DNA of 64,000 nucleotides from Bacteriovoracaceae bacterium (GTDB taxonomy: Bacteria; Bdellovibrionota; Bacteriovoracia; Bacteriovoracales; Bacteriovoracaceae): the NCBI GenBank assembly GCA_048270185.1, contig JBLWTJ010000001.1, positions 1,632,001-1,696,000 on the forward strand. Reading direction: 5' to 3'. The notes below the pieces were generated by a model. The model worked only from the letters and a program-made list of their open reading frames with translations. It was not told the origin of the DNA and made no database searches. Within the stretch, counting starts at the first letter, position 1; every line of letters starts with the position of its first letter. Positions 8,950 to 40,547 of the stretch are shown piece by piece. Both the position numbers and the translations under genes were made by a program.

Positions 8950-10583
8950 GCTTTAATTAATTCACGCTTGTCTTTTCGCCAAAGATTACAGCCATCACAA
9001 ATATTGATTTCATTGCGATGTCCACTTAGATGCATTTGGCGATACTGATTAACAATTTGATCGTTCCAGACTTCTTTTAAACTTCTCTGCGTAATATCTC
9101 CTAGAGGAAATTTAGTTGTTGTGTCCATACAACAAAGAGGAACAACTCCATCGACATGAATACACATTGTCGACCATTTTGCATGACATGGAAGAGTGTC
9201 ATTATATCTTTCAACATGAGATAATTCACCTGCCCAATTATGGATCTTCTGGATTGAAATTTCGTCATGTGATGAAATAAATTGATTCCAATACTTAATA
9301 TAGCCATCGATCTCTGTGATATTTGAGCTTTGCTTTATTAATTGAATACGTATTTTGAGTTGCGAGTTCACTTTATCTCTTAACTTAATTAATTGATGTA
9401 TATTGGCCAATACCTTATCGTAATTAAGCCCACGTCTTATTCCCTCATAAGTTTCCTTGTCCATTGAATCGAGGGCAATATAGATTTCATCAAGTCCTGA
9501 CTCTAAGAGTTCGTGGCATTTTGATTCTGTAAGCAAGGAAGCATTAGTAGCAAGATTTACAACCTTAACACCTTTAGATTTGGTGTACTTGACCTTTTCG
9601 AATATATCTCGATCCAAGAGTGGTTCCCCATCAAGATAGAGCATGACCTTCTCGACATGATCATTATACTCACCTACTTCATCAATGATTTTCTTAAAAG
9701 TAACGTCATCAATCCTCTCCTTACTCTTAAGGGAGAAATCAATCCCACACATGGTACAGTCCGCATTACAGTTATTAACTGTTTCAATATGTAGATACCT
9801 TGGGAACTTGATACTTTGTGGAAGACTTACTCCCATATCTTCACGAAGAAGTCTTGAGTTTCGCTTTTGATTAAAAGCCTTTTTTAAATACTGTGAATAA
9901 GTTCTTAGAAAGAACTGAAATACTCCTAGAACATTCTTTACACGAAATGCTGATGTCTTAGTTTTTGATTTGAAATTATCATTTATTCCTACTTCAATAT
10001 AGTTATGACCACGCCATAGTAAATTTAAAATGATTTCTGCTTGATAAGCATAACTAAAAGTTTCGATATTAACTCGACGTAGATGCTTTGTGTGATAAAG
10101 AACATAGTGATTGTAATATTTTAAACTATTATTAAACAAAAGGTTTACTAATACTGTAAAAACTTTTGAGACAAACTGACGTCCAAAATGACGTTCTTTA
10201 AAATTCAACTGATATGGTATGATCATATCAGCAGCACCAGCATACTTAAAAATTCTTCTCAAAGACTCTCGTGTGATCGAGTTTTGTCCATGAATAATGA
10301 TAAAGAACTCGCTATCGACATTCTTAATACTATCGTTAAAAATCCCACCTAAACCGAGTTGCTTTTCAGTATGGATAACATTAATAAACTCATATTTTTC
10401 AGCAAAACCATCAGCAATAGAAGCTGTTTTATCACTACTCTGATCATTATAGATGACAATTGAGACACTCCCCCACACATCGATACAATCGAGTAAAACG
10501 CCTATTGTATCGGCGAGATTCTTCTCTTCATTATGAGCGGGAACCACTATCGTAAGGGACTTGTTTTTTATTAACATATTCAT
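8946..10583 (-). CDS. Fusion: GT2 (polyprenol-phosphate glycosyltransferase-like) plus radical SAM/SPASM domain
   Basis: N-terminal VVPAHNEE, NDQSSDKT, GLG; C-terminal CNADCTMC, GEPLL, TNASLL and SPASM cysteines (C..W, DG.V.LCC, C..C). Confidence 0.88.
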   Translation of the reverse strand: MNMLIKNKSLTIVVPAHNEEKNLADTIGVLLDCIDVWGSVSIVIYNDQSSDKTASIADGFAEKYEFINVIHTEKQLGLGGIFNDSIKNVDSEFFIIIHGQNSITRESLRRIFKYAGAADMIIPYQLNFKERHFGRQFVSKVFTVLVNLLFNNSLKYYNHYVLYHTKHLRRVNIETFSYAYQAEIILNLLWRGHNYIEVGINDNFKSKTKTSAFRVKNVLGVFQFFLRTYSQYLKKAFNQKRNSRLLREDMGVSLPQSIKFPRYLHIETVNNCNADCTMCGIDFSLKSKERIDDVTFKKIIDEVGEYNDHVEKVMLYLDGEPLLDRDIFEKVKYTKSKGVKVVNLATNASLLTESKCHELLESGLDEIYIALDSMDKETYEGIRRGLNYDKVLANIHQLIKLRDKVNSQLKIRIQLIKQSSNITEIDGYIKYWNQFISSHDEISIQKIHNWAGELSHVERYNDTLPCHAKWSTMCIHVDGVVPLCCMDTTTKFPLGDITQRSLKEVWNDQIVNQYRQMHLSGHRNEINICDGCNLWRKDKRELIKA

Positions 10584-10691
10584 CTAACTATAGTTTATAA
10601 TAACTTATAGATAATTACATTTATTATTAGTTAGAAATGATTTACCTGTTTGAGATTAGTTTTTATACAGTTGTAATGTACTAACTGACTA

Positions 10692-11723
10692 ATGAGTAGA
10701 CATTATTTAAGGATAGAGCTTATTGTGAGATTTTTAAGAACACCATTAAGAAGACTAGCAAAGTATCTTATCGTGAATCGAAATTCACATAAGACACTTC
10801 AAGACGTCAATTCTGCGACTCCTATTTATAAATTAGGAACACAGACACTAATGGATTCAAAATTTCCAATACAAATTAATTTAGAGGCCTCTAGAGCCTG
10901 TAATCTCAAATGTCCATTTTGCGCGAGAGAGGATGCTACTAGCGGAACACATATTGATCTCAAAATTGTTCAAAAAGTAGTAGAGGAGGCAAAAAAATAC
11001 GGCCCAACCGTCTTTGCCCTCCATATTTGGGGAGAACCTCTTATCAACCCTAAATGGGATGAGATTGTCCACATTATTAAATCTTCAAACAAGTCTAATG
11101 GTGTAACTATTACAACAAACGGCACACTCTTTACCCCAAAAAATATCGAAAAGCTTAAGAGGGACAAAGTAGATCAACTTATTATTAGTCTTCATACTCT
11201 TGACTCAAAGACTTATCCAATTCGAGTAGGCAAAGATATATCACTTCAAGATCAATTGGATTCACTTAGAGAGTTGGCGATACAAACCAAGAATTTATCG
11301 ATGGTTAAAGTCATACGTCTATTTGAAACGAAAGAAGATAAGATTACTCAAACGCAACTTATCAGTGAACTAAAAGAACTAGGCTACAATTTTGAAATAA
11401 CTGAATATGATAATTCGGCCGGTTTTAGAGATGACTGGTCAACAATTGAAACAAAAGAAAAGAGATGGCCTTGCTATCACCCATGGTTAACTGCCTCTGT
11501 TACAGTCCATGGAGATGTTACCATTTGCTGTGTGGATCCAATCAATCAACTTAAAATTGGTAATATTCAAAATGAAGATTTGAACTCGATGTGGACAGGA
11601 AGAAGACTGCAAGAAATAAGACATCAACATCTTAAACAAGAATTTGAATCAAATTGCTCAATATGTGAAAAGTGTGATACTTGGGCTGCTAAACCCGATT
11701 TCTTTTTTAATTTTCAAAAGTAG
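10692..11723 (+). CDS. Radical SAM/SPASM domain protein
   Basis: CNLKCPFC, WGEPL, TNGTL, PCYHPW, GDVTICC, CEKC. Confidence 0.9.
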   Translation: MSRHYLRIELIVRFLRTPLRRLAKYLIVNRNSHKTLQDVNSATPIYKLGTQTLMDSKFPIQINLEASRACNLKCPFCAREDATSGTHIDLKIVQKVVEEAKKYGPTVFALHIWGEPLINPKWDEIVHIIKSSNKSNGVTITTNGTLFTPKNIEKLKRDKVDQLIISLHTLDSKTYPIRVGKDISLQDQLDSLRELAIQTKNLSMVKVIRLFETKEDKITQTQLISELKELGYNFEITEYDNSAGFRDDWSTIETKEKRWPCYHPWLTASVTVHGDVTICCVDPINQLKIGNIQNEDLNSMWTGRRLQEIRHQHLKQEFESNCSICEKCDTWAAKPDFFFNFQK

Positions 11724-12712: not shown

Positions 12713-13693
12713 TTGCTAAAATTATACCTAAGTCATTTAATAAACAAAAGTTGGAAAACCTTGAAAAAGAAAATATCTGTTATCTACTCATTTAGAAATG
12801 AAGAAGAGAATATCAAAGAACTAATAAGAAGGTCACAAAGTACTCTCGAAAAGAGTGGACATGACTTTGAAATTATCTTCGTTAATGATAACTCAAGTGA
12901 TAATTCGAGAGCAATTCTAGAAGAGGTGATGTCATCAAATGATAAAATCAAATTAATAAATAACAGTAATCGCTTTGGGCAGGCACAAGGCACATTAGCG
13001 GGAATGCAATATGCAACAGGTGACGCTATTATCTATCTTGACTCTGACCTGCAAGATCCACCAGAGCTATTCATTGAACTTATTAGTAAATGGGAGCAAG
13101 GCTTTGAAGTTGTTCATACACGTCGAACGAAGAGACGTGGAGAAAGTCTCGCTAAGATGATTCTGACACGTATTGCCTATCGAATTATTAATAAGCTCTC
13201 ATTCATTAATATTCCAATTAATTGCGGTGATTTTAAGTTAGTCGATCGAAAGGTTGTCAACGAACTATTGAAAGTTCAAGAAGAGGAACCATACTTAAGA
13301 TCAATAATCTCATGGATTGGTTACAGACAAGCTTTTATTGACTATGAAAGAGATGCTCGTGGAGCTGGGAAAACACATTTTCCACTTTGGGGACTAAATC
13401 CATTTGAAACTTTCTTTATTGGTCTGACTTCTTTCTCAGTTTTCCCTCTTTATCTACCAATAATTTTCACCTTATTTTCATTTGCAATAATGATAGTGGC
13501 CGTAGCTTATTTTTATTTTCAAACAAGTCCAATAAGAGATATACACTACATTATTTTTGCCATTCACTGTGCTTTAAATATTATTTTGACTTGCTTCTCT
13601 ATTTTTGGAGTTTATTTAGCACGCATACATATGCAATCAAGAGGTCGTCAACACTTCATCATTGAAAGTATATTAGGGTTTGAGAATGAATAA
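12713..13693 (+). CDS. GT2 undecaprenyl-phosphate glycosyltransferase (GtrB/ArnC-like)
   Basis: NEEENI, NDNSSD, DSDLQDPPE, GDFKL, R.AG.T, two C-terminal TM helices; start probably TTG 12761. Confidence 0.9.
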   Translation: MLKLYLSHLINKSWKTLKKKISVIYSFRNEEENIKELIRRSQSTLEKSGHDFEIIFVNDNSSDNSRAILEEVMSSNDKIKLINNSNRFGQAQGTLAGMQYATGDAIIYLDSDLQDPPELFIELISKWEQGFEVVHTRRTKRRGESLAKMILTRIAYRIINKLSFINIPINCGDFKLVDRKVVNELLKVQEEEPYLRSIISWIGYRQAFIDYERDARGAGKTHFPLWGLNPFETFFIGLTSFSVFPLYLPIIFTLFSFAIMIVAVAYFYFQTSPIRDIHYIIFAIHCALNIILTCFSIFGVYLARIHMQSRGRQHFIIESILGFENE

Positions 13694-14624: not shown

Positions 14625-15306
14625 GATCACACCTATTATACTTTGCGGTGGATTAGGTACTCGTTTTCAAGAGATTAACTCCAATCTCCCTAAAGCCCTT
14701 TATCCAATAAAGAGTAAACCATTTATTCATAACCTTTTTGAACAGCTTATCAATGAGGGATTTAATTATACAATACTTTCAACCGGTCATTTAGCAAACC
14801 TTATCGAAGAGAAGATTGGTACCAAGTATAAAAGCCTTCATATTGATTACATAAGAGAAGAATCTCCTCAAGGTACAGGAGGAGCTATATTAAATTGTAT
14901 CAACAAAGTAACAACAGACTTTATTTTAGTTCTTAATGGTGATTCAATATTAAATGATGGCTTCACATCTCTTCTTAATAAACTTGAAAACTCAATCCTA
15001 TTAGCGAATCGCGTTCAACAATACGACTATACAAAACTTGGTCAAGTGATTGTCAAAGAGGGACAAGTTATTAGGTTTGAAGAAAAGTCTCAAGATATCG
15101 TCAGTGACTACGTTAACACTGGCATCTATTTAATTAAGAAGCAAGATTTACTCAATATAGATAAGAATGGACGTCCTCTCTCTTTAGAAAGAGACCTCAT
15201 AAATAACATTATTTACAAAGGCCTTTCATATAAAATAACAGATAACGCCATTTTAGATATTGGTACTAAAGGATCTTTGGAATTCACACTTAAGAATATT
15301 TCTTAA
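14605..15306 (+). CDS. Sugar-1-phosphate nucleotidyltransferase (HddC-like)
   Basis: LCGGLGTR, LPKAL, GTGGA, NGD, EEK, DIG; ATG 14605 chosen over ORF-track 14560. Confidence 0.85.
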   Translation: MNSIISKITPIILCGGLGTRFQEINSNLPKALYPIKSKPFIHNLFEQLINEGFNYTILSTGHLANLIEEKIGTKYKSLHIDYIREESPQGTGGAILNCINKVTTDFILVLNGDSILNDGFTSLLNKLENSILLANRVQQYDYTKLGQVIVKEGQVIRFEEKSQDIVSDYVNTGIYLIKKQDLLNIDKNGRPLSLERDLINNIIYKGLSYKITDNAILDIGTKGSLEFTLKNIS

Positions 15307-16252
15307 GGCCATCAGCAATCAATTGATCGACTAGTTTTTCGCCCGTTATCTTTGGATCAAAACCGAAAGTCTCCTTTGCCTTTGTTATATCTCCACATAA
15401 TCGGCCATTATCACTTGGTCTTTCAAACTTCTTATTATAAGTGACATAGTCTTCATAGTTGAGATTAAAATATGAGAAAGAATACTTTAGAGCATCTCTT
15501 AAACTTATAGGATTACTTGAAGCTACAATAAAGTCAGAAGGAGTATCAAGTTGCATAATATTCCAAGCTGCCTCCATATATTCTGGTGCAAATCCATAGT
15601 CTACCTCAATATCAATTGGGCCAAGTTCTAATTTATCTTGTAGACCTTTACTAATACGAATCGCTGAATTAACGATCTTATTAATCGCATAATCGTCATT
15701 CTTTCTCTCTGAAGTATGATTGTAGAAGAAGGCGGATGATGCATGGATATTAAAAGCATCTCGATAGTAACGAACTAGGCTATAGGCCATCACCTTTGCA
15801 GCGGCATAAGGACTTTGAGGATAGAAAGCTTCATCTTCATTTTGTATCATGGTTTTAGTCTTACCAAACATATGAGATGTTAATGGCTGAAAATATTTAA
15901 TCTCATTCGGATTAATTTGTTTAATAATTTCTAGAATTACACCTACTGCTTTTCCGGTAATATCACAGGAATATCCAACAGAATCGTAACTCCATCCGAC
16001 ATGATCCTGATCGGCCTCGTTATATATTTCTAAAGCTCCTGACTGGTTGATAGCACGATAAAGTGAAGTTGCATCATCAAGATCTCCCTGATGAACAACA
16101 ATATCCTTAAGAATATGATCAATATTCTTCGTATTCCCAGTGGCCGAACGTCTAATTAAACCGTGTACTTCGTAATTCTTTTCTAATAGATTCTCTGCAA
16201 GATAACTTCCATCCTGTCCCGTAACACCAAAAATTAATGCTTTCTTCTTCAT
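15290..16252 (-). CDS. GDP-mannose 4,6-dehydratase-like SDR (atypical active site)
   Basis: GVTGQDGSYLAE, SPYAAAK, NH.S.R, RP.D; TSHMFG where Gmd has TSELFG. Confidence 0.8.
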   Translation of the reverse strand: MKKKALIFGVTGQDGSYLAENLLEKNYEVHGLIRRSATGNTKNIDHILKDIVVHQGDLDDATSLYRAINQSGALEIYNEADQDHVGWSYDSVGYSCDITGKAVGVILEIIKQINPNEIKYFQPLTSHMFGKTKTMIQNEDEAFYPQSPYAAAKVMAYSLVRYYRDAFNIHASSAFFYNHTSERKNDDYAINKIVNSAIRISKGLQDKLELGPIDIEVDYGFAPEYMEAAWNIMQLDTPSDFIVASSNPISLRDALKYSFSYFNLNYEDYVTYNKKFERPSDNGRLCGDITKAKETFGFDPKITGEKLVDQLIADGLKKYS

Positions 16253-17502
16253 TCTAAAATCCTAAAGTTTGGTAGTGGAACAATAAACTTTCCACCCTTG
16301 TGCCTCCACTCACTTTCTCTCTCATACATTTCTTCGATAAATGTATAAGGAAGAACAAGAAAGTAATCAGGTTGAACTTTTCTAGCTTCATCTTCACTAT
16401 AACATTTTATTTTTGAACCAATCGTATACTTACCCCATTTCTCTGGACTTCTTTCGGCTGCACCATCGATTAGACTTGAATCCAGGCCATAGTATTGGAG
16501 AATCGTGTTTCCCTTAGTTGATGCTCCGTAAACCCATACAGACTTTCCTTGTGCCTTAGCTTCTTTAATAAAACTTAAGCACTTAGATTTCTCATCTTCG
16601 ATACTTTTGAAAAAATTATTAATTTCTTCTTCACTACATTCTTCTGCAAAATATTGATCAATTCTATCTTGAGATACAATATCAACTAGTGAATCCCCTA
16701 TTTTTCTAGTGGCAATCCTGAAACTTCCGTTATTTACATCATTCTTTTGAATGTCGATAATCTCAAGTCCATTTTTTTCAAATAAATACTTAAGTGACTC
16801 GAGAGTATAATACTCTAAATGCTCATGATTAATATTTCCAAGATCTCTCGTTTCAATCATATTCTTTAAACACATAAGTTGCGTAACAAAGATACCTCCA
16901 TCTGCTAACGCAGCATATGCATCTGCAATAAACTGATTTGGATCTTCAAGATCATAGAACATTCCAATGGCCGTAATAATCTTGGCTTTTTTCTTCGTTA
17001 CTTGTTCAAAGCTACTTAATTGCCAAAAATCCTCTATTAAATGATCAACACCTCGACTTCCTTCTTCTTTCAAGTTTGTCGCAGGTTCAACACCTATTTT
17101 AAAAATATCTAAACTAGATGGGTATTGCCTTAAGAGAGTTCCATCATTAGATCCAATATCAAGAACGATATCACCCTTTTCTAAGGTCACAATATTCATA
17201 CTGTATTTAACAATATCTTCTAATGCCAATTTCATCATATCCGTAACACCTGAGCGATACCAATAAAAGCGACTATAAAGAATTTCTTGAGGTGCCGTAT
17301 GGCGTAATTGAATAAGACTACAAGAGTCACATCTCACTAGTTCTAAAGGAGCCTTTGGGTATTTCGAGTGGTCTTCTTCTTCCACAAAATTATTAACATA
17401 GTGAGTACCAAGATCAGCAACATCTTTTAACGAAGAATTTCCGCAAATACGACAAGAGAAGCATGTTGTGTAATCAGATTTAGAAAAATTTCCTTTTATC
17501 AT
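16249..17502 (-). CDS. NDP-sugar C-methyltransferase (TylC3/NovU type)
   Basis: Zn motif CRIC...CDSC, DIGSNDGTLL, HEHLEYY, YGASTKG, GGKFIVPLP. Confidence 0.9.
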   Translation of the reverse strand: MIKGNFSKSDYTTCFSCRICGNSSLKDVADLGTHYVNNFVEEEDHSKYPKAPLELVRCDSCSLIQLRHTAPQEILYSRFYWYRSGVTDMMKLALEDIVKYSMNIVTLEKGDIVLDIGSNDGTLLRQYPSSLDIFKIGVEPATNLKEEGSRGVDHLIEDFWQLSSFEQVTKKKAKIITAIGMFYDLEDPNQFIADAYAALADGGIFVTQLMCLKNMIETRDLGNINHEHLEYYTLESLKYLFEKNGLEIIDIQKNDVNNGSFRIATRKIGDSLVDIVSQDRIDQYFAEECSEEEINNFFKSIEDEKSKCLSFIKEAKAQGKSVWVYGASTKGNTILQYYGLDSSLIDGAAERSPEKWGKYTIGSKIKCYSEDEARKVQPDYFLVLPYTFIEEMYERESEWRHKGGKFIVPLPNFRILE

Positions 17503-17512
17503 TTCTAACCTT

Positions 17513-19168
17513 TTATTTTGCTATTCTTTTAAATTTGAAAGCCCATAGTATTTTATCGCTTCCCTTTTCTCTTTGAAAGAATTTATTCTGATAAATCTCT
17601 ATTCCATTAATTGAAGCCAATTTAATTATTTCTTCCGGTTTTAGCTCTCCCCAAAGGAGATACCAACCAGACCAAGAGTCTTTGACAGGGACAACAAAGT
17701 CTCCTTTTTCTACGAAGTGTAGAACGTGAAGAAAAGAATCAAATTTACCATCATCAATTAAGTTATATAAATGAACAGGTGTAACCTGCTCTCTAGATAC
17801 ATATTCATAGCGACCGACATCACTTACCCCAATAGTAAAAGGACTCCTAATACCTTGTTCATTTGCATAATCAATATAGGATTGTGTTAGTTTCATATCG
17901 TGCCAACTAACTGGTGTTGTTGAATTATACGCAATCATTGCACTTATTAGCTGGGTGACAATAATGGCCACAATTGTAACAGCTATTGCCTTAAACCTCT
18001 CATAGCGAAGTAGTAGCTTATGAATAATAATCCCCAACATAAAACTGGCCAATAAGCTCATCGGATAGAGGTATATTTCGTAATTACCATTTAGTTGAAG
18101 AGAGAAAAGTAAACTTATATTAAATAGTAAGAGCGCAATAGAGCCTCTTAACAGTAATGAACCTCTTGCGCCCTTTTCTTTGATATCTATATATAAAAAA
18201 TAAGAAAAAGAAATTAGACCTAGAATAATAAGTACATAAGAAAGAATAGATAAGTTCGAGATTCGATAGTTTTGATAAAAGTTAATATCAGTAAAGTAAG
18301 ATACTATTAATTTATCATAAGTAAAAAATCTTGCTAGAGTGATAAAGTATTTAGAGAAATCAATAGTACCTGCGTACATTTGCGCTTCGTTCGCAAGACT
18401 TCCCCACTCCATCATTATAAATTGAGGTAGAGCTCCTATAATAAAGGGTACAACTATAATTCTCCTATTCTTCCAAAAAACTTCAAAGTAAAGTACTAAA
18501 ATTGCAATAAAAGACCAAAGAAAGTTCAAACGAATATAGAAGCCAAAACCTAAGATAAAACCGACCGCAGCTAACTTCCAAACTTCTTGTCTCTTTGATG
18601 CCAGAATATTGAAGCAAATCAACATAAAGACATTCATAATTGGCTCTGTAACAAAGATTGCAAAAGAAAAATATTCTCTAACATCAATCACAAATAGTAA
18701 TGATGCTATTAGAGTGAGAGACAAACTATTGAAAGATATCCATACCCACCTTATAAATAAGTAAAGACAGAGAGTACCAAACAACAAATGCCACAAAAGG
18801 AAGCCGTACTTAGGGCCAAATATTTTTGACCATTGCCCAAATAAGAAGACACTTAATCCACCATGTTTCTCTTCTAACATTAGAGGTAATATCCTCTTAC
18901 TTCCTGCAAATTTATAATTATATACGGGAGGTAAACTATCATATTTGAAACCTGAATCTACTTTCGAGATTTCTCTGAATGACAATTCTGAAAATTTCAG
19001 TTCATTGTAATTATCAACCGAAGTAACAACATTAGGTTTTGCGGAAAGAACACCATTAAAGCTATCAGAAGAAACAAGTGGATTTGTTTGAAAGAAAGAA
19101 AAATAAACCAGTATATATGAAAATATACTGGTTATGATTATGTATTTAAGATTATATTTTGCTTTCAA
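17513..19168 (-). CDS. Polytopic membrane protein, ArnT/PMT-like (GT-C) glycosyltransferase candidate
   Basis: One TM, a long loop with acidic residues, about ten further hydrophobic segments (G..LG.GFY.R.NF) and a soluble C-terminal tail; family assignment is inference. Confidence 0.6.
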   Translation of the reverse strand: MKAKYNLKYIIITSIFSYILVYFSFFQTNPLVSSDSFNGVLSAKPNVVTSVDNYNELKFSELSFREISKVDSGFKYDSLPPVYNYKFAGSKRILPLMLEEKHGGLSVFLFGQWSKIFGPKYGFLLWHLLFGTLCLYLFIRWVWISFNSLSLTLIASLLFVIDVREYFSFAIFVTEPIMNVFMLICFNILASKRQEVWKLAAVGFILGFGFYIRLNFLWSFIAILVLYFEVFWKNRRIIVVPFIIGALPQFIMMEWGSLANEAQMYAGTIDFSKYFITLARFFTYDKLIVSYFTDINFYQNYRISNLSILSYVLIILGLISFSYFLYIDIKEKGARGSLLLRGSIALLLFNISLLFSLQLNGNYEIYLYPMSLLASFMLGIIIHKLLLRYERFKAIAVTIVAIIVTQLISAMIAYNSTTPVSWHDMKLTQSYIDYANEQGIRSPFTIGVSDVGRYEYVSREQVTPVHLYNLIDDGKFDSFLHVLHFVEKGDFVVPVKDSWSGWYLLWGELKPEEIIKLASINGIEIYQNKFFQREKGSDKILWAFKFKRIAK

Positions 19169-19171
19169 ACC

Positions 19172-21241
19172 TTACTGAAGGCCACAACAAATAAAACGTG
19201 TTCGGTAAGCGTGATTACCACTAGCAAGATAGATACGTTGACGATAAAAACCTTTTACAATAGGTTTTGTCGAAGGACACTGGTAATAAGCCTCTACAGC
19301 AGTACCTGCAGTACTATTTGATGGGTTTACGTTTGTGTGAATATATTGAAAATCAAGACCAGAGTTAGCACACGACACAACAGATGGAACAGGCCAGCTT
19401 GATTTACAAACAGAGCCGATACAAACCGAAGTACATGAGTTAGAATAGTTACACTTATCATTAGAGTCGTTGACACAATAAAGTGAGATCTGAGTTCCTA
19501 TTGTCTTTGCACCTCTTACAACTTGCCCACTACCACAAAGAGTATATCCAGATCCAGTTGTAACAGTACCAAAACTTCGATACGCCAAAATTGCATCTCT
19601 GATCGATGTATACTTATCCTGAGCTGTTCCAGCATCATTTAATAAATGTTGAAGAATAGCTTTTCTTTCATCTGCACCAAAAGAAGTCGCTAAAGTTCTA
19701 TATACCCATTCTTTAGTTACGAAACGACTATTATTTGCTCCATAATCACCAATTTGCGAATAAGTGAAATTAGAAATTAAATGTCCACCAGCATCTAAGT
19801 AGGCAGCATTCACACCATCCCTCTGAAGGCGTACAGTATTTACACCATTAATATTAACGTTCTGACCAGTGAGTGTATGAGTCCCAGCAGAAGTCGTATT
19901 GATATTTGCAGAGGCATTAGTATTAATATCTGTAGAGGCATTAGTATTAATTTCTCCAGTAATATCAACAGTCATTCCAGCAGAACCGTTCACATCGACA
20001 ACACCAGCAGCGTTGACCTCAACTTCTCCCGCTGAGGAAGTTATTGTATTCTTCCCACCTGACTCATTCGTTATGAAACCAGCTGCATCGTTAGAGATAT
20101 TTCCAGTGACAGTATTTAAATCATCTCCTGTTATATTTGTAGTTTTTGAGCCTCCAAAAGTCTCATTGATAGTACCATTCGTATTGATATTTGTTGCCGG
20201 TGCTAAGTAGTTAAGATCAGCTGATACGGCACCTGTTATATTTATAGTTGGATTATCTGTTGTTGCAGCACCTAGATGAAGATTTTTTTCAACCCATAAT
20301 GAACCAGCGTCAGTTGGTTGAGCCATTGAGCCAGCATTAACAGAAATGACAACCCCACCAGTATTGGCAATTGCCGCGGCATCATCATACTTTGTACCAT
20401 AGAACCTAGTAGGTCCATCAATATTAAGAGAGTACTGTTGGGCATTGGCAGGAGCATCAAAAGCAGCTGAAGGTAGAGTATTTCTATTCTTCATTACAAA
20501 ATTTCGACAAGTCCCATCATCTTCGAAAAATGTCCCCCCCATCGACACACACGTTGCCTGAGCGTAATCAAGACGATCTCCGAAACACTTCTCAATGACA
20601 CCAGCTGTTGTCGTAACAACATTAAGCTTAATGGAAGTACGCATCTCAAGCGCACCAAAAGAAGATTTTTGAATTGCATCCTGCTGTTCTGCAGTAAGTG
20701 CACCTGTACGGCCACTCTTTCTTAAGTTTACAACAAGACTGATCTCCCCTCTTCTTCTAGTTTGTGGAACACCGTTACCATCAACATAAGAGAATGTATC
20801 AAATGAAACTCCATCCGCACCACATGTATGATTTGTATATGTTGCAGGGTTTGTATCATTACAATAGCCAAATATTCTAATATCTCGAATTGTTAAAGCT
20901 TCACCGGCATTACCGATTTGATCATCAATATTGAAAGTTGGGTTTACAGCGCCAACCTTTTTAATACCGGCGAGTACAGGTGTTCCCGGTGCGGCATCGA
21001 CGGCCAAGCCTCCCAATGTCTCAGTACAGTTATCTTCACTAAGCATTAACGTAGCAAGTCTATTCTTAAAAGAGTTTGCCTCAAAGTCCTGACGTACTTT
21101 CTTCGTCCCACGGTTAATATTACTCATGATCTGTGTTACCGCTACAGATAAAACCCCAAGAAGTCCTGCTGCAACCATAACCTCAACGAGGGTGAAACCT
21201 TTGGTACCAAGAAATTTAAACTTACGTTGTCTTTTCATCAT
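19172..21241 (-). CDS. Large type IV pilin-like protein with beta-repeat region and Cys-rich C-terminus
   Basis: Class III signal: basic leader, G|FTLVEVMV with E5, hydrophobic helix; 8-residue repeats in the middle. Confidence 0.88.
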   Translation of the reverse strand: MMKRQRKFKFLGTKGFTLVEVMVAAGLLGVLSVAVTQIMSNINRGTKKVRQDFEANSFKNRLATLMLSEDNCTETLGGLAVDAAPGTPVLAGIKKVGAVNPTFNIDDQIGNAGEALTIRDIRIFGYCNDTNPATYTNHTCGADGVSFDTFSYVDGNGVPQTRRRGEISLVVNLRKSGRTGALTAEQQDAIQKSSFGALEMRTSIKLNVVTTTAGVIEKCFGDRLDYAQATCVSMGGTFFEDDGTCRNFVMKNRNTLPSAAFDAPANAQQYSLNIDGPTRFYGTKYDDAAAIANTGGVVISVNAGSMAQPTDAGSLWVEKNLHLGAATTDNPTINITGAVSADLNYLAPATNINTNGTINETFGGSKTTNITGDDLNTVTGNISNDAAGFITNESGGKNTITSSAGEVEVNAAGVVDVNGSAGMTVDITGEINTNASTDINTNASANINTTSAGTHTLTGQNVNINGVNTVRLQRDGVNAAYLDAGGHLISNFTYSQIGDYGANNSRFVTKEWVYRTLATSFGADERKAILQHLLNDAGTAQDKYTSIRDAILAYRSFGTVTTGSGYTLCGSGQVVRGAKTIGTQISLYCVNDSNDKCNYSNSCTSVCIGSVCKSSWPVPSVVSCANSGLDFQYIHTNVNPSNSTAGTAVEAYYQCPSTKPIVKGFYRQRIYLASGNHAYRTRFICCGLQ
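19910..19951. repeat. In-frame 24-bp-period tandem repeat inside the pilin gene
   Basis: agaggcattagtattaat exact at 19910-19927 and 19934-19951 (encodes INTNAS twice). Confidence 0.9.
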
Positions 21242-21441: not shown

Positions 21442-21789
21442 ATGGAAATTATGAAGAAGATTTTTATATATTTATCATTTGTCATGTTATTCCAGAGCTG
21501 TTTGCTCAAGAAAGTCCAAGAATTTAATGAAGATAAACGTTCTAACGACAATACAGACACTAAAATGGATGTAATAGGACGCGGTTACTTTACACATGAA
21601 TCGCAGATATATTTTTCAAATGGAAATGATGCCTTTTGCGCCCTAGAGAGTTGGGAACAACTAGAGTCCTTCTTAAGTAAAGAAAGTATAACTAATCTAG
21701 GTGAACTCGAATTACCTACAATGCAAAAAATGCAAGGACGTTGTACAGAAGAGCTTGTATTTGGGGAGCTTAAATTACTTAGTAAATAG
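21442..21789 (+). CDS. Small lipoprotein, unknown function
   Basis: MKK...hydrophobic...FQSC lipobox. Confidence 0.7.
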   Translation: MEIMKKIFIYLSFVMLFQSCLLKKVQEFNEDKRSNDNTDTKMDVIGRGYFTHESQIYFSNGNDAFCALESWEQLESFLSKESITNLGELELPTMQKMQGRCTEELVFGELKLLSK

Positions 21790-21795
21790 AGCATC

Positions 21796-23193
21796 ATGCA
21801 AAAGTTTAAAAATTATATCCCCTTTATTCTTTTAACTCTAATGGCAATATCCGTCATTCAACTTATATATTTAAGTCATATAAATACAATTAAATATCAC
21901 AAAGAGTTTATTAACTTAAAAACAATTAATAAATATGTTCCCCTTATGGGTGCAGATGAATTCATGACATCAACGGTATCTTTAAATAAGCAATCACTCA
22001 ACCTTGGTGCCTGGCAGGGTTATCATGAGTTAACTTTAAAAGAAGACATTGATATAAAAGACATAGAAATTCAATTTACTACACCAGAAACAAGACGACT
22101 TGAATTGATATTTAAGACAGATCAAGGTGAATATCTATTAAGAGTAACTAATAGCAAGCTCTATCCTTCCATTTTCACCAAACTACAAGCACAAAGATTT
22201 ACAGAAAAGAAAAGATTAAATATTCAAAAATTAATAGAGAAGAATACCCTTAAAGTAGAAAAAAACAATCAAGTATTCGTTATCACATTAAACAATAAAA
22301 TCATCCATCGTTTTAGTCCAAAATATATCTCAAATATCGTACTAAAAGGCAGTCAAAGTACTACAACAATAAAGAATATAAAGATAAATGATAATGTCTA
22401 CTCATTTTCAATCTTCCATAATTGGCAACTTTCAATCATACCATCTCTCTGCGCACTAATAATATTACTTATAATTATCTCACTAATGAGTCGTTATACT
22501 TCCAAAGATTATTCACGCTCATTACTACTATTCTACATTAATATAGCACTAACAACATACTTTGCGTATCACTTCTATGTACAAGCAGGCCGTTACCCTG
22601 AGACCACAAAAGAAAGTCAAATAGAGGAAGAATTATTAATAAAGAACGAATTTGCAAGAATAGAAGAACTTATTAATAAGTCCAATATCGCACCTAGACT
22701 TTTTATCGGATCATCCCAGACGTTCGGCGAAGGAGCTAGTACAAAAAAAGAAACATGGGTCAATCAGCTTTGCCAAAATAATTGTATCAATTCAGGCATT
22801 AGATCTGCAACAACACAAGATTTTTTAGACAATTTTAAGATCTATCAAAATACAAAATTTTCAAAAGTATTTATCAATCTTGCGTATAACGATACTCAAA
22901 GTGATACTCATTCGGCAAACATGAGGAAACTCGTTCAAGAATTCAAACAAATTTCAGAGCAGGTCATACTAATAATAGAGCCCTACAATACGGTATTTAA
23001 CAAATTATCAATTAATCAAGAAAACATAGTAAATACCTGCCAAGAAGCGCAGATTAAATGTATTAATCCAATGAATGAACTTACTGAAAAATATGACAGT
23101 GGTTTTATATGGTGGGATATGATTCACCTAACAGACTATGGTCAGAAGCTAATGGCTGATATCATCAACAAAAGCTTACGTCAAAATTACTAA
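21796..23193 (+). CDS. Membrane-anchored SGNH/GDSL hydrolase or O-acyltransferase
   Basis: FIGSSQTFG, NSG, NLAYND, WWDMIH (DxxH) blocks after three TM segments. Confidence 0.75.
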   Translation: MQKFKNYIPFILLTLMAISVIQLIYLSHINTIKYHKEFINLKTINKYVPLMGADEFMTSTVSLNKQSLNLGAWQGYHELTLKEDIDIKDIEIQFTTPETRRLELIFKTDQGEYLLRVTNSKLYPSIFTKLQAQRFTEKKRLNIQKLIEKNTLKVEKNNQVFVITLNNKIIHRFSPKYISNIVLKGSQSTTTIKNIKINDNVYSFSIFHNWQLSIIPSLCALIILLIIISLMSRYTSKDYSRSLLLFYINIALTTYFAYHFYVQAGRYPETTKESQIEEELLIKNEFARIEELINKSNIAPRLFIGSSQTFGEGASTKKETWVNQLCQNNCINSGIRSATTQDFLDNFKIYQNTKFSKVFINLAYNDTQSDTHSANMRKLVQEFKQISEQVILIIEPYNTVFNKLSINQENIVNTCQEAQIKCINPMNELTEKYDSGFIWWDMIHLTDYGQKLMADIINKSLRQNY

Positions 23194-23225
23194 ATATGTT
23201 ATGATGAATTGCATAAGGAAAAACT

Positions 23226-23729
23226 ATGAAAATCATTTTAATATTTATATTCATCAACTTTATTCCTCTGGCCAATGAGCTACAAAGTAAAGAAGAAACT
23301 AATAATTCAAAATTAATGAATGTCTTTTCTAAGAAAGATGCTAGTTTTCTTGAAGAAGCGTGCATTAAGAAAATTGATTATGTATTCACTATCATTGATG
23401 GAGTTAATTCGATAAACAAAGAAAAATCTATTACAAACCTAAAAAGTAAATATATCCTCGATCAACATGCTTTTCATTTTGACATCAAGATTCTTACCGA
23501 AAAATACAATAATAAAAAATCAAAAGCATATTTCGATGAACTTCTAAAGATCACAAAAAAATATAATATCGACCCACTTAATAAATGTATGATTGATACT
23601 TATCGTGTATTAATGGCCAGACAAGAGTGCCTTAAGTCAGCTAATACTGCGGATAAGAAAAAGAGTTGCGAAGATGGGTTTAAAATTGCTGACGAGAATA
23701 TTCTAGGATTATTCTTCAGTAAAAAATAA
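23226..23729 (+). CDS. Hypothetical exported protein
   Basis: Signal-peptide-like N-terminus, 4 Cys. Confidence 0.6.
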   Translation: MKIILIFIFINFIPLANELQSKEETNNSKLMNVFSKKDASFLEEACIKKIDYVFTIIDGVNSINKEKSITNLKSKYILDQHAFHFDIKILTEKYNNKKSKAYFDELLKITKKYNIDPLNKCMIDTYRVLMARQECLKSANTADKKKSCEDGFKIADENILGLFFSKK

Positions 23730-24740
23730 GAACTCATAGTCACCATAGTAGTCATTCTTATCAAATAGGTACTCCCACTCTCTTGGTGATAGAAAGCTTT
23801 CACATGTTAAGGCCCAGCACTGAAGATTACATAATTCCTCTTCATTTCGATATGATTCAACTGCAAGATAAGATTTCTTTGATACTCGAGTCATTTCTTT
23901 CAAGGCTGCTTCAAGCTCAGGAAGTTCAAAGTTATGAAAGACCATAAGAGATATTGCTAGATCGAATTCCTTATGGCCAAAATCCAACCCTTCTCTAATA
24001 TCTACGACTTTTAAAAACGCCCTTACTTCTTCTTTAGCATCATCAATTGCATGATTTGAAATATCAATTCCTGTAATAGATATGCCTGGCAAGATTCTTT
24101 TAATCTCAAACAAGAGATGGGCCTTTCCACAACCAAGATCTAGGACACTAGACTCATTTGTGAGTCGATACTTATCAATGATCATTTCGGCTAAAGGTTT
24201 CCAACGTCCATCATATTGGTAGCCACCATAACCATATTTTCGCTCACCATCCCAATAATCAAAGTCATATTTTTTTGAAATTTTCATTTCGGATGGCTTC
24301 GTTGCAGACATTCTGGCGAAATAATCTCGTTTTGTGGCGGTATGAAGAGATGTTAGTAGTTCAACACATTTTCCTCTTTTATTTTCTAGAAAGTAATTTA
24401 ATTCATCAAGGTCACTTTCAGTATTTAAGATATAATCTTCACTAACAAAGTGTATTTCAAAATTCTTTTCTTTAACCTTCTTAATGAACTTAGAATACGG
24501 AAATCCTCTATTCTTTAGTATCGAAAGACTAAAAAAAAGTAACTTAGATCCATTTAAACTATCTTCTAGTAAACTATTAAGACTATGCCAGCTTCCATTG
24601 AGGTTAACTTCAGTCATACCAAAACAGAATTCTAACTCTCTTTGAGAACAATATGATCGAAAGACCATATTTTGAATACGATGAGGAACAAATGATCCAT
24701 CAATAACTGAAGAATATAAATAACTATATGCTTTCATCAT
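23709..24740 (-). CDS. Fusion: sporadic carbohydrate cluster protein (LIC12192-like) plus class I SAM methyltransferase
   Basis: N-terminal VPHRIQNMVFRSYC; C-terminal DYWDG.RKYGYGGY.YDGRW and LDLGCGK; N-terminal family recognised from memory. Confidence 0.78.
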   Translation of the reverse strand: MMKAYSYLYSSVIDGSFVPHRIQNMVFRSYCSQRELEFCFGMTEVNLNGSWHSLNSLLEDSLNGSKLLFFSLSILKNRGFPYSKFIKKVKEKNFEIHFVSEDYILNTESDLDELNYFLENKRGKCVELLTSLHTATKRDYFARMSATKPSEMKISKKYDFDYWDGERKYGYGGYQYDGRWKPLAEMIIDKYRLTNESSVLDLGCGKAHLLFEIKRILPGISITGIDISNHAIDDAKEEVRAFLKVVDIREGLDFGHKEFDLAISLMVFHNFELPELEAALKEMTRVSKKSYLAVESYRNEEELCNLQCWALTCESFLSPREWEYLFDKNDYYGDYEFLFFTEE

Positions 24741-25455
24741 CTATATCCCTCTCATATTTAATTGCGAGTCTTGTTTGTATCGATAAATTGATTTTTTCAA
24801 AATACTCAAATAACTTCTTATCGTGATAAGGACTGTGAAAGTTCTTAAAACGAAGATTTAGGCTCACACGCGTAAGCTCTTCTTCATTAACAATATTTCC
24901 ATGAATTAGACCAGGAAAGAAGAAAAGGGCCTGGCCCTCTTTTAGTTCAACAAATTGCCTATTCTCTTTATATTTTTCTTCAATTGAAGAAAGAGTACGA
25001 CTCTTCTTCATTTCTTTGATGATTTGTATCGAATCCTCATATGAGTATAGATAGAAAGATTGTGATTTACTCACGTCCACAAGAGGTATCCATACAACGA
25101 CCTCATAGGGTGAATTACCACAAAGTACATCAGAATGTAGAGGTTGAAGAAAGTCTCCATTTCCAGGAAGATGAATATTTATATTAATTTTTTTCTGAAT
25201 TGCTAATTCTACACCAACGATCTCACTTAGCTGAGACTTTAACTGTTGGTAAATATCTTCTTTGACTTCTTTTATTGATATCTCTGAAATGGCCTTAAGA
25301 CGAATTTCATTAATTTTCGGACCATCAAGTTCACGATGAAGAGTAGAGAAATTAGAAGTACCAACGACCGAAGCGAAGACTTTTTTAATTAAGTCAGGGT
25401 TAAACTCACAAATAGTATAACCTTTTTCGAGGTAGTCTTGTGAATTAAACATCAA
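24724..25455 (-). CDS. 2OG-Fe(II) oxygenase (sporadic carbohydrate cluster type)
   Basis: LHSD, GNSPYEVVVWIPL, HGN..N, TRVSLNLRFK. Confidence 0.85.
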   Translation of the reverse strand: MMFNSQDYLEKGYTICEFNPDLIKKVFASVVGTSNFSTLHRELDGPKINEIRLKAISEISIKEVKEDIYQQLKSQLSEIVGVELAIQKKININIHLPGNGDFLQPLHSDVLCGNSPYEVVVWIPLVDVSKSQSFYLYSYEDSIQIIKEMKKSRTLSSIEEKYKENRQFVELKEGQALFFFPGLIHGNIVNEEELTRVSLNLRFKNFHSPYHDKKLFEYFEKINLSIQTRLAIKYERDIDDESI

Positions 25456-26356
25456 AACGTTCCTTAATAATTGTCCCCATTCTTTCTGGAGTCAGACCTA
25501 ACTGTGCAAAAATCTCTTCTTGTCTTCCATAAATACTTGGATAGCCTTCACCAAGGTGAAAGTGATGAAAATTCTTATTTATCCCATTATCAAAAAGAGT
25601 CGATTTAACACGAGAGCCAAGTCCCCCCTTTTCGAGATGTTCTTCAATAACAACGATATTTTCATACTTGTCTAAATAGTTAACTAACTCATCACTAGCA
25701 AATGGTTGGACCGTTGCAAAATGAAGAACTGAAATAGAATTATTATCATTTTGAATATCAAGACATCGCTGAAGCATAATTCCGGTTGTTATAATTAATG
25801 TACGTCCTAAGCTCTCGCTTGGGTAATAAAGTGCTTTTCCAATTTCAATATCATGACCCTTTGTTACAACTGGATCTCCACCTTTACCAAGACGGATATA
25901 AACAGGACCTTGATGAGATTCCGTTTTCTTAATCAATTGATTCATCTCATTAGCATCAGCGGGTGCAAGAATAGTTAAATTTGGTAATGTTTCTAAGATT
26001 GAAAAATCATCCACACAAGTATGAGTATGCCCTAATGGGCCGTAAACGAGGCCGCCTCCATTTCCATAAAGTCTTACATTGAGATTCTCATAGCAAATAT
26101 CAAGAGCAAGTTGTTCAAAGGCGCGCTTTACGATAAATGAAGCGATTGTATTCACATAAACAATATTACCACTTAAGGCCATTCCTGCGGCCATTCCAAG
26201 AACGTGCCCTTCACTAATTCCTTCCATAAAGAATTGCTCTGGTGCTTGTTCTTTTAGATCAGATAAAACATCAGGACCAAGATCAGAGCCAATAAAGACC
26301 ACGTCCTTATTTTTTAAGGCAAGTTCTGAAATAGTATTTAAACCTGTCTTTCTCAT
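25445..26356 (-). CDS. Transketolase-like C-terminal subunit (second copy)
   Basis: MEGISE, GGGLVYGPLGHTH, YIRLGKG, IEEH..GGLGS. Confidence 0.9.
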   Translation of the reverse strand: MRKTGLNTISELALKNKDVVFIGSDLGPDVLSDLKEQAPEQFFMEGISEGHVLGMAAGMALSGNIVYVNTIASFIVKRAFEQLALDICYENLNVRLYGNGGGLVYGPLGHTHTCVDDFSILETLPNLTILAPADANEMNQLIKKTESHQGPVYIRLGKGGDPVVTKGHDIEIGKALYYPSESLGRTLIITTGIMLQRCLDIQNDNNSISVLHFATVQPFASDELVNYLDKYENIVVIEEHLEKGGLGSRVKSTLFDNGINKNFHHFHLGEGYPSIYGRQEEIFAQLGLTPERMGTIIKERFDV

Positions 26357-27153
26357 TCGATGCCTTTATAAAGTAATTTAATCTCATCTACTGTTAGCTT
26401 ATTCTTATGATGCCAACTTAAATCATTTTCAATCATAGTAAGACCTTGTCCCTTGATCGTATGACAGATAATGCAAAGAGGTTTATTTTGATTTTGATTT
26501 AAGATATCTAATAAAGTCTCACTTGAATTAACCATATCGACTTCGGCCACATCAAAACCAAAACTTCTCCACTTATCAGGAAAAGGTTCGAGTGGACAAA
26601 CTTCACTTACACTACCGTAAGACTGAAGCTTATTATAATCAATGATGACAATCAGATTATCTAATTTGTTCTTAGAAGCTGACAATGCCGCTTCCCAAAC
26701 TGTACCTTCGTTACATTCGCCATCACCAAGGATCGCCACAACTTTCTTATTCGATTTATTCTTCTTATTAGAGCAGGCCATTCCCACTGCAACAGGTAAA
26801 CCGTGTCCTAGAGACCCAGTAGAAAACTCTATACCTGGAACACGCTGGCGCGATGGGTGCCCTCCAAGTATTCCATCTACCTTACATAATTTGTCATATT
26901 CTGATTCATCAAAGAAACCTTTCTCTTTTAAAATCGCATATAGAGAAAGACAGCCATGTCCCTTACTTAAAATAATACGATGTCGGTCTAAACTTTCAAA
27001 ATCGGCAGGAGTTAAATTGTATTTGTAATAATAGAGAGTAACAAGAATTTCCACAAGAGAGTAAGCAGAAGGGAGATGCCCGCGTCCACCGCGAACAAAT
27101 AAATTAAGTGTTTCTTTTCGAATCGTCTTGCATAAATCCTTAAAATCTTTCAT
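26353..27153 (-). CDS. Transketolase-like N-terminal subunit (second copy)
   Basis: GH..SA.S, LSKGHG, GGHP, TGSLGHGL, GDGECNEG. Confidence 0.92.
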   Translation of the reverse strand: MKDFKDLCKTIRKETLNLFVRGGRGHLPSAYSLVEILVTLYYYKYNLTPADFESLDRHRIILSKGHGCLSLYAILKEKGFFDESEYDKLCKVDGILGGHPSRQRVPGIEFSTGSLGHGLPVAVGMACSNKKNKSNKKVVAILGDGECNEGTVWEAALSASKNKLDNLIVIIDYNKLQSYGSVSEVCPLEPFPDKWRSFGFDVAEVDMVNSSETLLDILNQNQNKPLCIICHTIKGQGLTMIENDLSWHHKNKLTVDEIKLLYKGIE

Positions 27154-40496: not shown

Positions 40497-40547
40497 TGCA
40501 GTGTGGATGAACGAATCCACAAATTAAGCAAGGCTTGGGGGGATCAC

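Follow-up and report, generated by a model that had tools for sequence, protein, structure and literature searches.

The gene at positions 19172..21241 on the minus strand of the window analyzed here, i.e., of the whole 64-kb stretch of contig JBLWTJ010000001.1 from a Bacteriovoracaceae bacterium, encodes a protein of 689 amino acids (aa; P0001, on which all residues are numbered). Judged by its sequence, this protein is a modular type IV (minor) pilin of a Bacteriovoracaceae-type bacterium, in which a class III signal peptide precedes the pilin domain. Beyond the pilin domain lie a region of eight-residue repeats (octads) that resembles the beta-helices of phage spikes, a conserved neck and a cysteine-rich C-terminal tip. 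We regard it as plausible but unproven that P0001 is a trimeric pilus-tip adhesin. According to this reading, to which we assign a probability of roughly 0.55, the fiber part of the modular minor pilin would trimerize via its octads, the pilin modules would seed or cap a type IV filament, and the cysteine-rich tip would serve as an exposed adhesin, whose targets would most plausibly be prey surfaces.

The open reading frame (ORF) described in an earlier note, which had been made from the letters of the stretch alone, is real: the ORF list and translation give a single ORF of 689 aa at these positions, and the motifs quoted in that note (TLTGQNVNIN, FVTKEWV, and VCIGSVCKSSWP) all occur in its product, a modular prepilin-fiber protein. 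The claim that the protein begins as a pilin holds as well. Its N-terminus reads MMKRQRKFKFLGTKG up to the predicted cleavage site and FTLVEVMVAAG after it, and the prepilin motif scores above the curated cut-offs of both Pfam (N_methyl, PF07963; 23.6 bits, cut-off 21.2, E 3.6e-5) and NCBIfam (TIGR02532; 21.4 bits, cut-off 16.3). These N-terminal pilin motifs are the sole Pfam and NCBIfam matches of the entire protein. All features of a class III signal are present, namely a short basic leader running to a glycine, approximately 20 hydrophobic residues, and a glutamate at position +5. The leader peptide, as delimited by the Pfam and NCBIfam matches, comprises residues 1-15 (21197..21241, minus strand) and ends in Gly15, with the predicted prepilin-peptidase site before Phe16. 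G15, F16, and E20 (the glutamate at +5) are invariant across the family alignments A1 and A3, and residues 15-40 form the only strongly hydrophobic segment of P0001.

The pilin module proper (residues 16-250; 20492..21196, minus strand) was delimited by an AlphaFold2 (AF2) model, hydrophobicity, and alignments, and is predicted to consist of a hydrophobic alpha1 helix and an alpha/beta globular domain. Its cysteines 72, 219, 231, and 245 are invariant or nearly so in alignments A1-A3. The full-length AF2 monomer, calculated from alignment A2 with 52 sequences, has a mean predicted local distance difference test score (pLDDT) of 63, and the pilin domain alone is confident: blocks of 10 residues within residues 31-250 average 80-96, with dips to 77 (residues 81-90), 48-72 (121-150), and 76 (221-230). 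In this part the model places a helix at residues 19-76 and beta strands within 116-246. Foldseek with the whole AF2 model retrieved nothing from PDB at E<0.1 (lowest E 0.13; best pilus entry 9a1f_S, E 0.33), the module not having been searched separately. A variable linker follows (residues 251-308; 20318..20491, minus strand) that is 49-60% identical to the closest relative, P0002, has pLDDT values of 53-75, and extends up to the recombination junction discussed below. Since the N_methyl motif is combined with an extra module, residues 309-689, that matches phage baseplate families of the PHROG database, P0001 is a modular pilin in the sense of PMC8179133.

The octad region (pattern phi-x-G-x-x-x-x-x; residues 331-470; 19832..20251, minus strand) is, on the basis of its periodicity and of PHROG and BLASTP comparisons, a candidate triple-stranded beta-helix of the gp5 type. 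The earlier note had correctly recognized eight-residue repeats at ~19845-20195. We count 14 clear units from F362 to approximately residue 471, most of them with a glycine; read by eye, they are FGG, ITG, VTG, AAG, SGG, SAG, AAG, SAG, ITG, AST, ASA, SAG, LTG, and ING. Successive units are spaced 6-9 residues apart, 12 of the 14 have glycine at position 3 of the phi-x-G element, and Ile or Val predominates at position 5. Upstream of them, residues 331-361 contain about three more units of degenerate sequence, which brings the number to ~17 in all. Over residues 336-470 the identity autocorrelation is 0.236 at lag 8 vs 0.03-0.16 at other lags; in 10,000 shuffles that kept the composition, no lag between 2 and 20 ever gave a value this high (the shuffle maximum had a mean of 0.157 and a standard deviation of 0.016). 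In the same segment, 14 of the 17 glycines fall in three adjacent phases. The composition of residues 331-470 is strongly biased (Thr 18%, Asn 17%, Gly 12%), with Thr, Asn, Gly, Ala, and Ser together accounting for 64%. Period 8 is confined to P0001 and P0002, the repeat periods of the other relatives being mostly 18-30 residues.

Part of this region also repeats at the DNA level. Tandem Repeats Finder detected a 24-bp tandem repeat at 19896..19959 (minus strand; period 24, 2.7 copies, 85% matches) that encodes INTNASTD/INTNASAN/INTT and was previously called exact and taken to indicate a recent change in length. Neither statement can be upheld: the two best units are identical in 22 of 24 positions and the third has diverged, and P0002, the sole close relative available, has an identical repeat region. 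No length variation was found, and as both alleles carry the same repeats, nothing points to a recent change in repeat number.

A profile search against the 38,880 PHROG families links the octads to phage tails. The whole of P0001 matches phrog_430 ('baseplate hub subunit and tail lysozyme,' the gp5 family) with E 4.2e-8 over residues 341-545. The octads alone (residues 331-470) match phrog_9992 ('baseplate assembly protein,' 7.2e-5), phrog_430 (4.6e-4), and phrog_4011 ('baseplate protein,' 0.6) and no other family, and all three belong to the category 'tail.' In a BLASTP comparison with gp5 of phage T4 (NC_000866), residues 352-399 align to gp5 residues 504-551 ungapped, with six octads in register (38% identity over 48 residues, E 0.001), and a second segment pairs residues 364-464 with gp5 476-574 at the needle end (E 0.011). 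That the octads constitute a gp5-like beta-helix module is supported but not proven by these matches. Because the hub domains of gp5 (OB-fold and lysozyme) and the gp27-like core of VgrG are absent from the Pfam and NCBIfam matches of P0001, the protein is not a member of the gp5/VgrG family; the helix module alone resembles them. P0001 shares with the T4 gp5 needle and the VgrG beta-helix the V-x-G-x-x-x-x-x octad register. The earlier term 'spike,' if understood in the piercing sense, is nevertheless unlikely to apply, because the beta-helix of P0001 is internal and is followed by the neck and a tip of 124 residues, an arrangement that, unlike that of gp5 and VgrG, points to a stalk and not to a piercing point.

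The octads are followed by the neck (residues 481-565; 19547..19801, minus strand), which was defined by family sharing and the AF2 model and consists of the motif RFVTKEWV and subsequent helices, predicted at residues 510-520, 523-536, and 545-553. W512 and V513 are nearly invariant in alignment A3, and no PHROG matches the neck at E<0.1. Sharing of neck, tip, and octads was assessed by local phmmer in 152 stored relatives of P0001, and 161 stored proteins were used for the domain, segment, and motif counts given further below. In the former set the neck is common to 15 other proteins (E 1e-13 to 1e-4). The tip (residues 566-689; 19175..19546, minus strand), recognized by its cysteine positions and by family sharing, contains 10 cysteines, the motif CIGSVCKSSW, and a terminal CC, and is common to nine other proteins (E 7e-18 to 1e-4). 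According to the alignments, C603, C607, C612, C655, and C685 are conserved. An AF2 model of neck and tip alone (alignment A4, 27 sequences) has a pLDDT of 59.6 and predicts three helices and then beta strands. Word-indexed homolog searches with residues 481-689 or 309-500 retrieved P0001 and P0002 only. In the representative search, a Calx-beta repeat protein of 1139 aa (P0049) matches residues 551-596 (19454-19591) in five stretches (E 2.2e-9), which hints at a possible Calx-beta-like beta-sandwich element at the start of the tip. A feature search with residues 309-689 (Atlas, best score 0.80) yielded phage hyaluronidase (0.78) and shufflon PilV (0.77); these are chance-level leads and were not used.

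The relatives of P0001 place this architecture in a wider family. A word-indexed search found two of them, P0002 (81% identity) and P0003 (33%), and the exhaustive search of the representative library found 270 at E<=1e-3 and 40 at <=1e-10, many of which are 600-800 aa long. Four parts can be distinguished in the family alignments: a conserved pilin module, a highly variable repeat-rich middle, the (F)VTKEWV neck, and several types of cysteine-rich ends. The octad middle was found in P0001 and P0002 only, and the proteins that share the tip are a largely different set from those that share the neck. As neck and tip are thus shared with different relatives, the architecture is mosaic. The fiber cassette as a whole (residues 309-689; 19175..20317, minus strand) is 100% identical between P0001 and P0002 (381/381 residues), vs 35-75% per 40-residue window for residues 41-308, with the last mismatch at residue 308. 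This sharp junction, together with the shuffling of modules in the family, suggests that cassettes are exchanged between pilin and fiber parts by recombination at 308/309. There is no sign of a foreign base composition in the fiber part: its GC content at third codon positions is 0.22 vs 0.30 in the pilin part and 0.25-0.30 in seven other genes of the window.

Several family members carry modules that are well known from phage fibers. Pfam Peptidase_S74 ('chaperone of endosialidase') was identified in all nine candidates chosen by their C-terminal sequence (E 1e-13 to 1e-17), and a local hidden Markov model built from these nine matches 21 of the 161 stored proteins, 20 of which have a pilin N-terminus. 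S74 domains act as intramolecular chaperones of trimeric fibers (PMC10769870). P0013 matches 36 PHROGs, mostly tail-fiber families, as well as the long tail fiber distal subunit 6f45 in PDB (E 0.004). Tail-fiber PHROGs are also matched by P0025, P0026, and P0048 (1e-6 to 1e-13), and P0048 in addition matches PDB entry 8ond, 'bd2133' (E 1.3e-15), by a segment that is common to 6 of the 161 stored proteins. Bd2133 is a Bdellovibrio 'mosaic adhesive trimer' (MAT) fiber that has been solved as an intertwined trimer (PMC10769870). By these matches, the same pilin domain carries varied phage-derived fiber modules, which include MAT/bd2133-like helices, tail-fiber repeats, and ends with or without S74. 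The S74 and bd2133-like fusions mean that the pilin domain of the family recurs below modules that are trimeric wherever structures exist. Phage-like parts, as proposed in the earlier note, are therefore strongly supported at the family level, where S74 ends and a bd2133-like helix occur on the same pilin domain. Searched with the profile of alignment A3, PDB yielded nothing beyond pilin N-termini and left-handed beta-helix enzymes of a generic kind (LpxD, E 1.6e-4).

The capping-loop motif of MAT fibers was also considered, but in its strict form it occurs in 4 of the 161 stored proteins at chance-like sites, and P0001 has only a loose version, LGAATTDNPTINI, at residue 323; no claim is made from it. 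Separately, the motif VGIGTxxPxxxL is present in 11 of the 161 stored relatives (P0025, P0026, P0048, P0056, P0109, and others), where it recurs at intervals of ~65-100 residues. It is one residue longer than the capping-loop consensus V-G-G/N-pi-x-x-P-x-x-x-L given for MAT fibers (PMC10769870).

The family occurs in Bacteriovoracaceae-type genomes. Among the matches listed for species-representative genomes, 10 loci were confirmed, of which the best are in five Bacteriovoracaceae metagenome-assembled genomes and one Bdellovibrio; the other four match the N-terminal pilin segment only. Those cluster members whose source is named stem from Bacteriovorax sp., Bacteriovoracaceae, and Halobacteriovorax, and their source annotations range from 'hypothetical' and 'tail fiber domain-containing protein' to 'pseudopilin PulG,' 'PilV,' and 'prepilin-type….' In the window itself, five housekeeping genes at 57-63 kb share their order with a Bacteriovoracaceae contig (L004), the identities being 31-61%, which places the window in a relative of this predatory group.

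Taken together, a mechanism can be proposed in which three copies of P0001 would intertwine by their octads to form a triple-stranded beta-helix. The resulting stalk would be ~7-8 nm long, as estimated for a three-start helix of 14-17 octads from a rung spacing of 4.8 Å and the dimensions of the gp5 needle. The three pilin modules at the base of the helix would seed or cap a type IV filament in the manner of CofB and TcpB trimers, and the tip domain would be displayed at the distal end of the pilus, where it would bind a ligand as an adhesin. For a predator, this ligand would most likely be a prey surface structure, and retraction could then draw the two cells together. The co-transcribed membrane protein resembling GT-C glycosyltransferases and the deoxysugar enzymes described below would probably glycosylate the Ser/Thr/Asn-rich fiber in the periplasm. 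A far-reaching extension of this mechanism, which we put forward only tentatively, would be that Bacteriovoracaceae-type predators possess pili tipped by interchangeable phage-derived trimeric fibers ('pilin-anchored MATs'), with the cassette setting which prey surface is grabbed and being swapped between strains at 308/309, and with the GT-C enzyme adding a rare methylated deoxysugar. A single molecule would then unite pili and fiber adhesins, both of which are known to be required for prey entry.

Several results weigh against a trimeric pilus-tip adhesin. A phmmer search of P0001 against PDB sequences returned T4 gp5 beta-helix fragments, geopilin N-termini, and VgrG1 only, all of them non-significant (E 0.57-2.4). 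The earlier description of a pilin fused to gp5/VgrG-like octads and a fiber-like end is nevertheless supported, since the PHROG and BLASTP matches and, at these non-significant E values, the PDB hits independently assign the octads to phage spike beta-helices. Residues 320-565 had no tblastn match at E<=0.01 among 50,697 phage records, and the Asn/Thr/Gly-rich composition of the octads could inflate the PHROG profile scores; for these two reasons the identification of the octads as a beta-helix falls short of proof. P0001 itself lacks S74 and matches neither bd2133 nor any tail-fiber PHROG (Pfam, PDB, and PHROG searches), so that the trimer argument for this protein is partly one of family analogy. 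The neck and tip model has no assignable fold, the best Foldseek hits having E 2.7 (PDB) and 0.33 (BFVD). The window contains no other pilin motif among ORFs of >=80 aa, and no pilus-assembly family among its 55 non-overlapping ORFs of >=90 aa (48 of them scanned with NCBIfam, six neighbors with Pfam, and the pilin gene with both). As to glycosylation, the membrane protein encoded next to the pilin has no Pfam, NCBIfam, or PDB sequence match, its GT-C assignment deriving from language-model features and topology alone, and its homology to a membrane protein with tetratricopeptide repeats (TPR) that is encoded next to the P0001 homolog of locus L002 was rejected (best E 1.6). Finally, residues 345-470 of the AF2 monomer have pLDDT <50 and lack secondary structure. 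Such unstructured octads may fit an obligate oligomer and equally fit absent alignment depth, and depth alone could account for them, as the octads have a single relative that is identical.

The same part of the model bears on whether P0001 might act as a single chain. If P0001 were a modular minor pilin that stays monomeric, its octads would fold into a triangular beta-solenoid or an irregular stalk within a heteromeric minor-pilin tip complex, as for ComZ; with three 8-residue sides and ~24 residues per turn, such a solenoid would be only ~3 nm long. ComZ does provide the example of a pilin with a large beta-solenoid that is monomeric in solution (PMC6561018), an octad sequence by itself would not tell a one-start from a three-start beta-helix, and the family profile weakly matches single-chain left-handed beta-helix enzymes (the LpxD match mentioned above). 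However, a monomeric solenoid, named in the earlier note as the outcome that would contradict its proposal, did not appear: the AF2 monomer gives the octads neither a solenoid nor any other structure. Moreover, the best-matching families are obligate-trimer spike helices, and relatives with the same pilin domain carry S74 chaperones and a bd2133-like helix, both hallmarks of trimeric fibers. We therefore regard the monomer as doubtful. The low pLDDT of the octads would suit a further possibility, that the repeats are an extended, heavily glycosylated, mucin-like Ser/Thr/Asn-rich spacer that holds a binding domain off the pilin and resembles gp5 only in composition. The five residue types that make up 64% of this region are compatible with such a spacer, as are the 18 N-x-S/T sites of P0001, 10 of which lie between residues 334 and 448, and the GT-C-like and sugar genes in the operon. 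On the other hand, a beta-helix needs the strict phasing by eight residues, with glycine at position 3 and a hydrophobic or small residue at 1 and 5, which a disordered spacer does not, and glycosylation can coexist with a beta-helix; we consider the spacer very unlikely.

Trimerization of the fiber could also occur away from any extended retractile pilus. P0001 would then be a trimeric surface fiber that uses its prepilin N-terminus for export and anchoring only, as a pseudopilus stub or an inner-membrane helix, and would represent the Bacteriovoracaceae counterpart of the Bdellovibrio MAT fibers with a different anchor. MAT fibers are indeed adhesins of the cell surface that are anchored by a separate and invariant domain at the N-terminus (PMC10769870), MAT-like modules occur among the family members, no pilus genes were found nearby, and some relatives are named 'pseudopilin PulG.' Yet the full pilin globular domain (~235 residues with four conserved cysteines) is kept across the family, which a mere anchor would not need, and the glutamate at +5 is invariant, as it is in assembling pilins. 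On balance this makes an anchor-only function unlikely, and we favor the trimeric pilus-tip adhesin.

The genomic context of the pilin gene is one of sugar metabolism. It opens a tightly packed operon on the minus strand that further encodes a membrane protein, a C-methyltransferase, and an enzyme of the GDP-mannose-4,6-dehydratase family. Only 3 nt separate the stop codon of the pilin gene from the second gene (17513..19168, minus strand), whose polytopic product of 551 aa is a candidate GT-C glycosyltransferase: its language-model features (Atlas) score 0.99 to PMT_2/RgtA-like GT-C clusters, with 10 of the 10 best hits sharing family or clan. Its 14 overlapping hydrophobic windows suggest ~10-12 membrane segments, with a first transmembrane segment (TM1) at residues 7-25, a long loop of ~95 residues at 26-120, approximately ten further hydrophobic segments, and a soluble C-terminus at 413-551, a predicted topology that fits GT-C enzymes. 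The sugar C-methyltransferase (16249-17502, minus strand; Pfam Methyltransf_14/13, E 1e-34) is encoded 10 nt further downstream, and its gene overlaps by 4 nt with that of the GDP-mannose-4,6-dehydratase-family enzyme (15290-16252, minus strand; Pfam GDP_Man_Dehyd, E 7e-80). Judging from this gene order, the fiber is probably glycosylated. A precedent is TfpW of Pseudomonas aeruginosa, a pilin-glycosylating GT-C enzyme that is encoded directly after pilA.

An AT-rich 11-bp hairpin with a T-run lies 40-65 nt past the pilin stop codon (19106-19133, minus strand), inside the first codons (TM1) of the ORF for the 551-aa protein, and may be due to chance or represent a partial attenuator. A scan for promoters and terminators gave counts that equal the shuffle expectation.

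The operon is part of a sugar-biosynthesis region of ~29 kb (window positions ~850-29500). Besides three DegT/PseC-like aminotransferases, a WbuC cupin, and epimerases, this region encodes a B12-binding radical S-adenosylmethionine (SAM) enzyme (847-2352), two split transketolase subunit pairs (2362-4130 and 25445-27153), radical SAM/SPASM proteins (8946-10583, with an N-terminal GT2-like part, and 10692-11723), an ArnC/PgfS-like GT2 (12713-13693), and a 2-oxoglutarate-Fe(II) oxygenase of the TIGR04324 'sporadic carbohydrate cluster' family (24724-25455). Upstream of the pilin gene, three divergent genes (21442-23729, plus strand) encode products of 115, 465, and 167 aa. The first of these has a hydrophobic N-terminus, the second is a membrane protein with a weak match to GDSL/SGNH hydrolases (E 1.6e-5, below the cut-off), and the third belongs to no family. 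Two further products of the window are unrelated to the pilin-fiber protein, namely a 190-aa pentapeptide-repeat protein with weak Qnr/HalA-like matches (40503-41075) and a PorV/PorQ-like outer-membrane protein with a weak N-terminal match only (47668-48759).

Two loci with pilin-fiber homologs of P0001, L001 and L002, were inspected for comparison. In L001, a free-standing protein of 164 aa that is essentially a Peptidase_S74 domain (E 4.5e-18) is encoded at 6969-7463, ~500 nt upstream of the gene for a pilin-fiber homolog of 739 aa that itself lacks S74, and may serve as a fiber chaperone in trans. Downstream of the pilin-fiber gene, at 10171-11358, follows a thioredoxin-like protein of 395 aa (Pfam Thioredoxin_4, E 4.5e-5; NCBIfam Rcas_1661 family, 1.4e-8), which could function in disulfide formation in the cysteine-rich tip; no counterpart of it was identified in the window. 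Radical SAM/SPASM genes are located upstream of the pilin-fiber gene in L001. In L002 they are found near the homolog, together with an aminotransferase gene, and a 594-aa multi-transmembrane/TPR protein is encoded just upstream of it. The neighboring genes of these relatives are analogous to, and not homologous with, those of the window.

Predation by Bdellovibrio-like organisms requires type IV pili, and what the pili of predators bind is a long-standing question. A pilin-fused fiber would provide a testable mechanism for pilus-mediated prey recognition. In Bdellovibrio, prey recognition is mediated by the phage-like MAT fibers, the anchoring of which is unclear (PMC10769870). If the trimeric pilus-tip adhesin is confirmed, phage receptor-binding modules would have been reused on a bacterial retractile filament. 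It would also be a second example of a homotrimeric pilus initiator, outside the type IVb pili of enteric pathogens. Furthermore, the sharp recombination junction between pilin and fiber would offer a natural handle on the evolution of prey range.

Among known systems, the modular pilins PilB and PilC of Streptococcus sanguinis (PMC8179133) are like P0001 in that a grafted non-pilus module, for which exposure at the tip has been proposed, is attached to a prepilin motif and a pilin module. P0001 differs from the known modular pilins by its long graft of several modules (octads, neck, and cysteine-rich tip), all of them without a Pfam signature. The InterPro survey in the excerpted text of the same paper lists an architecture 'N-methyl motif + S74 peptidase,' which corresponds to the S74 branch of the P0001 family and is treated there as a predicted peptidase, not as a trimeric fiber. 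CofB and TcpB, the homotrimeric tip minor pilins of type IVb pili, would be the model for the mechanism proposed here. In CofB, the pilin domain is followed by beta-rich, homotrimerizing C-terminal domains, the protein initiates the pilus, and its binding domain is located at the far end (PMC6048534). In contrast to these proteins, to which the PDB searches gave no sequence match, P0001 is not encoded in a type IVb operon but within a sugar cluster, and its stalk is made of octads of the phage-spike type instead of the beta-repeat and H-type lectin of CofB. ComZ of Thermus thermophilus is, like P0001 in our model, a large tip-located pilin with a beta-helical module (PMC6561018). The module of ComZ, however, is a single-chain solenoid inserted inside the pilin fold of a monomeric, DNA-binding protein (PMC6561018), whereas that of P0001 is C-terminal, of the octad type, and probably trimeric.

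The closest parallel to the fiber part is offered by MAT fibers such as Bd2133, Bd1334, and Bd3182, which are predator-encoded, phage-related, and mosaic, form S74 and non-S74 groups, and have swappable tips (PMC10769870). The P0001 family shares with them the mosaic combination of necks and tips and the occurrence of S74 and non-S74 ends. The two are set apart, as far as the published description goes, by their N-termini: MAT fibers have an invariant N-terminal domain of their own without a PDB homolog, and P0001 has a prepilin motif and a pilin domain. The word 'pilin' has no occurrence in PMC10769870, and P0001 did not match the solved MAT chains in PDB, either as a single sequence or with the A3 profile. 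No description of a pilin fused to a gp5-like or MAT-like fiber, or of a triple-stranded beta-helix at a pilus tip, was found in the literature, with most subscription journals and supplements outside the search. Modular pilins and MAT fibers are already known, and MATs are not pilins; what appears to be new is a pilin-fiber fusion of the P0001 type.

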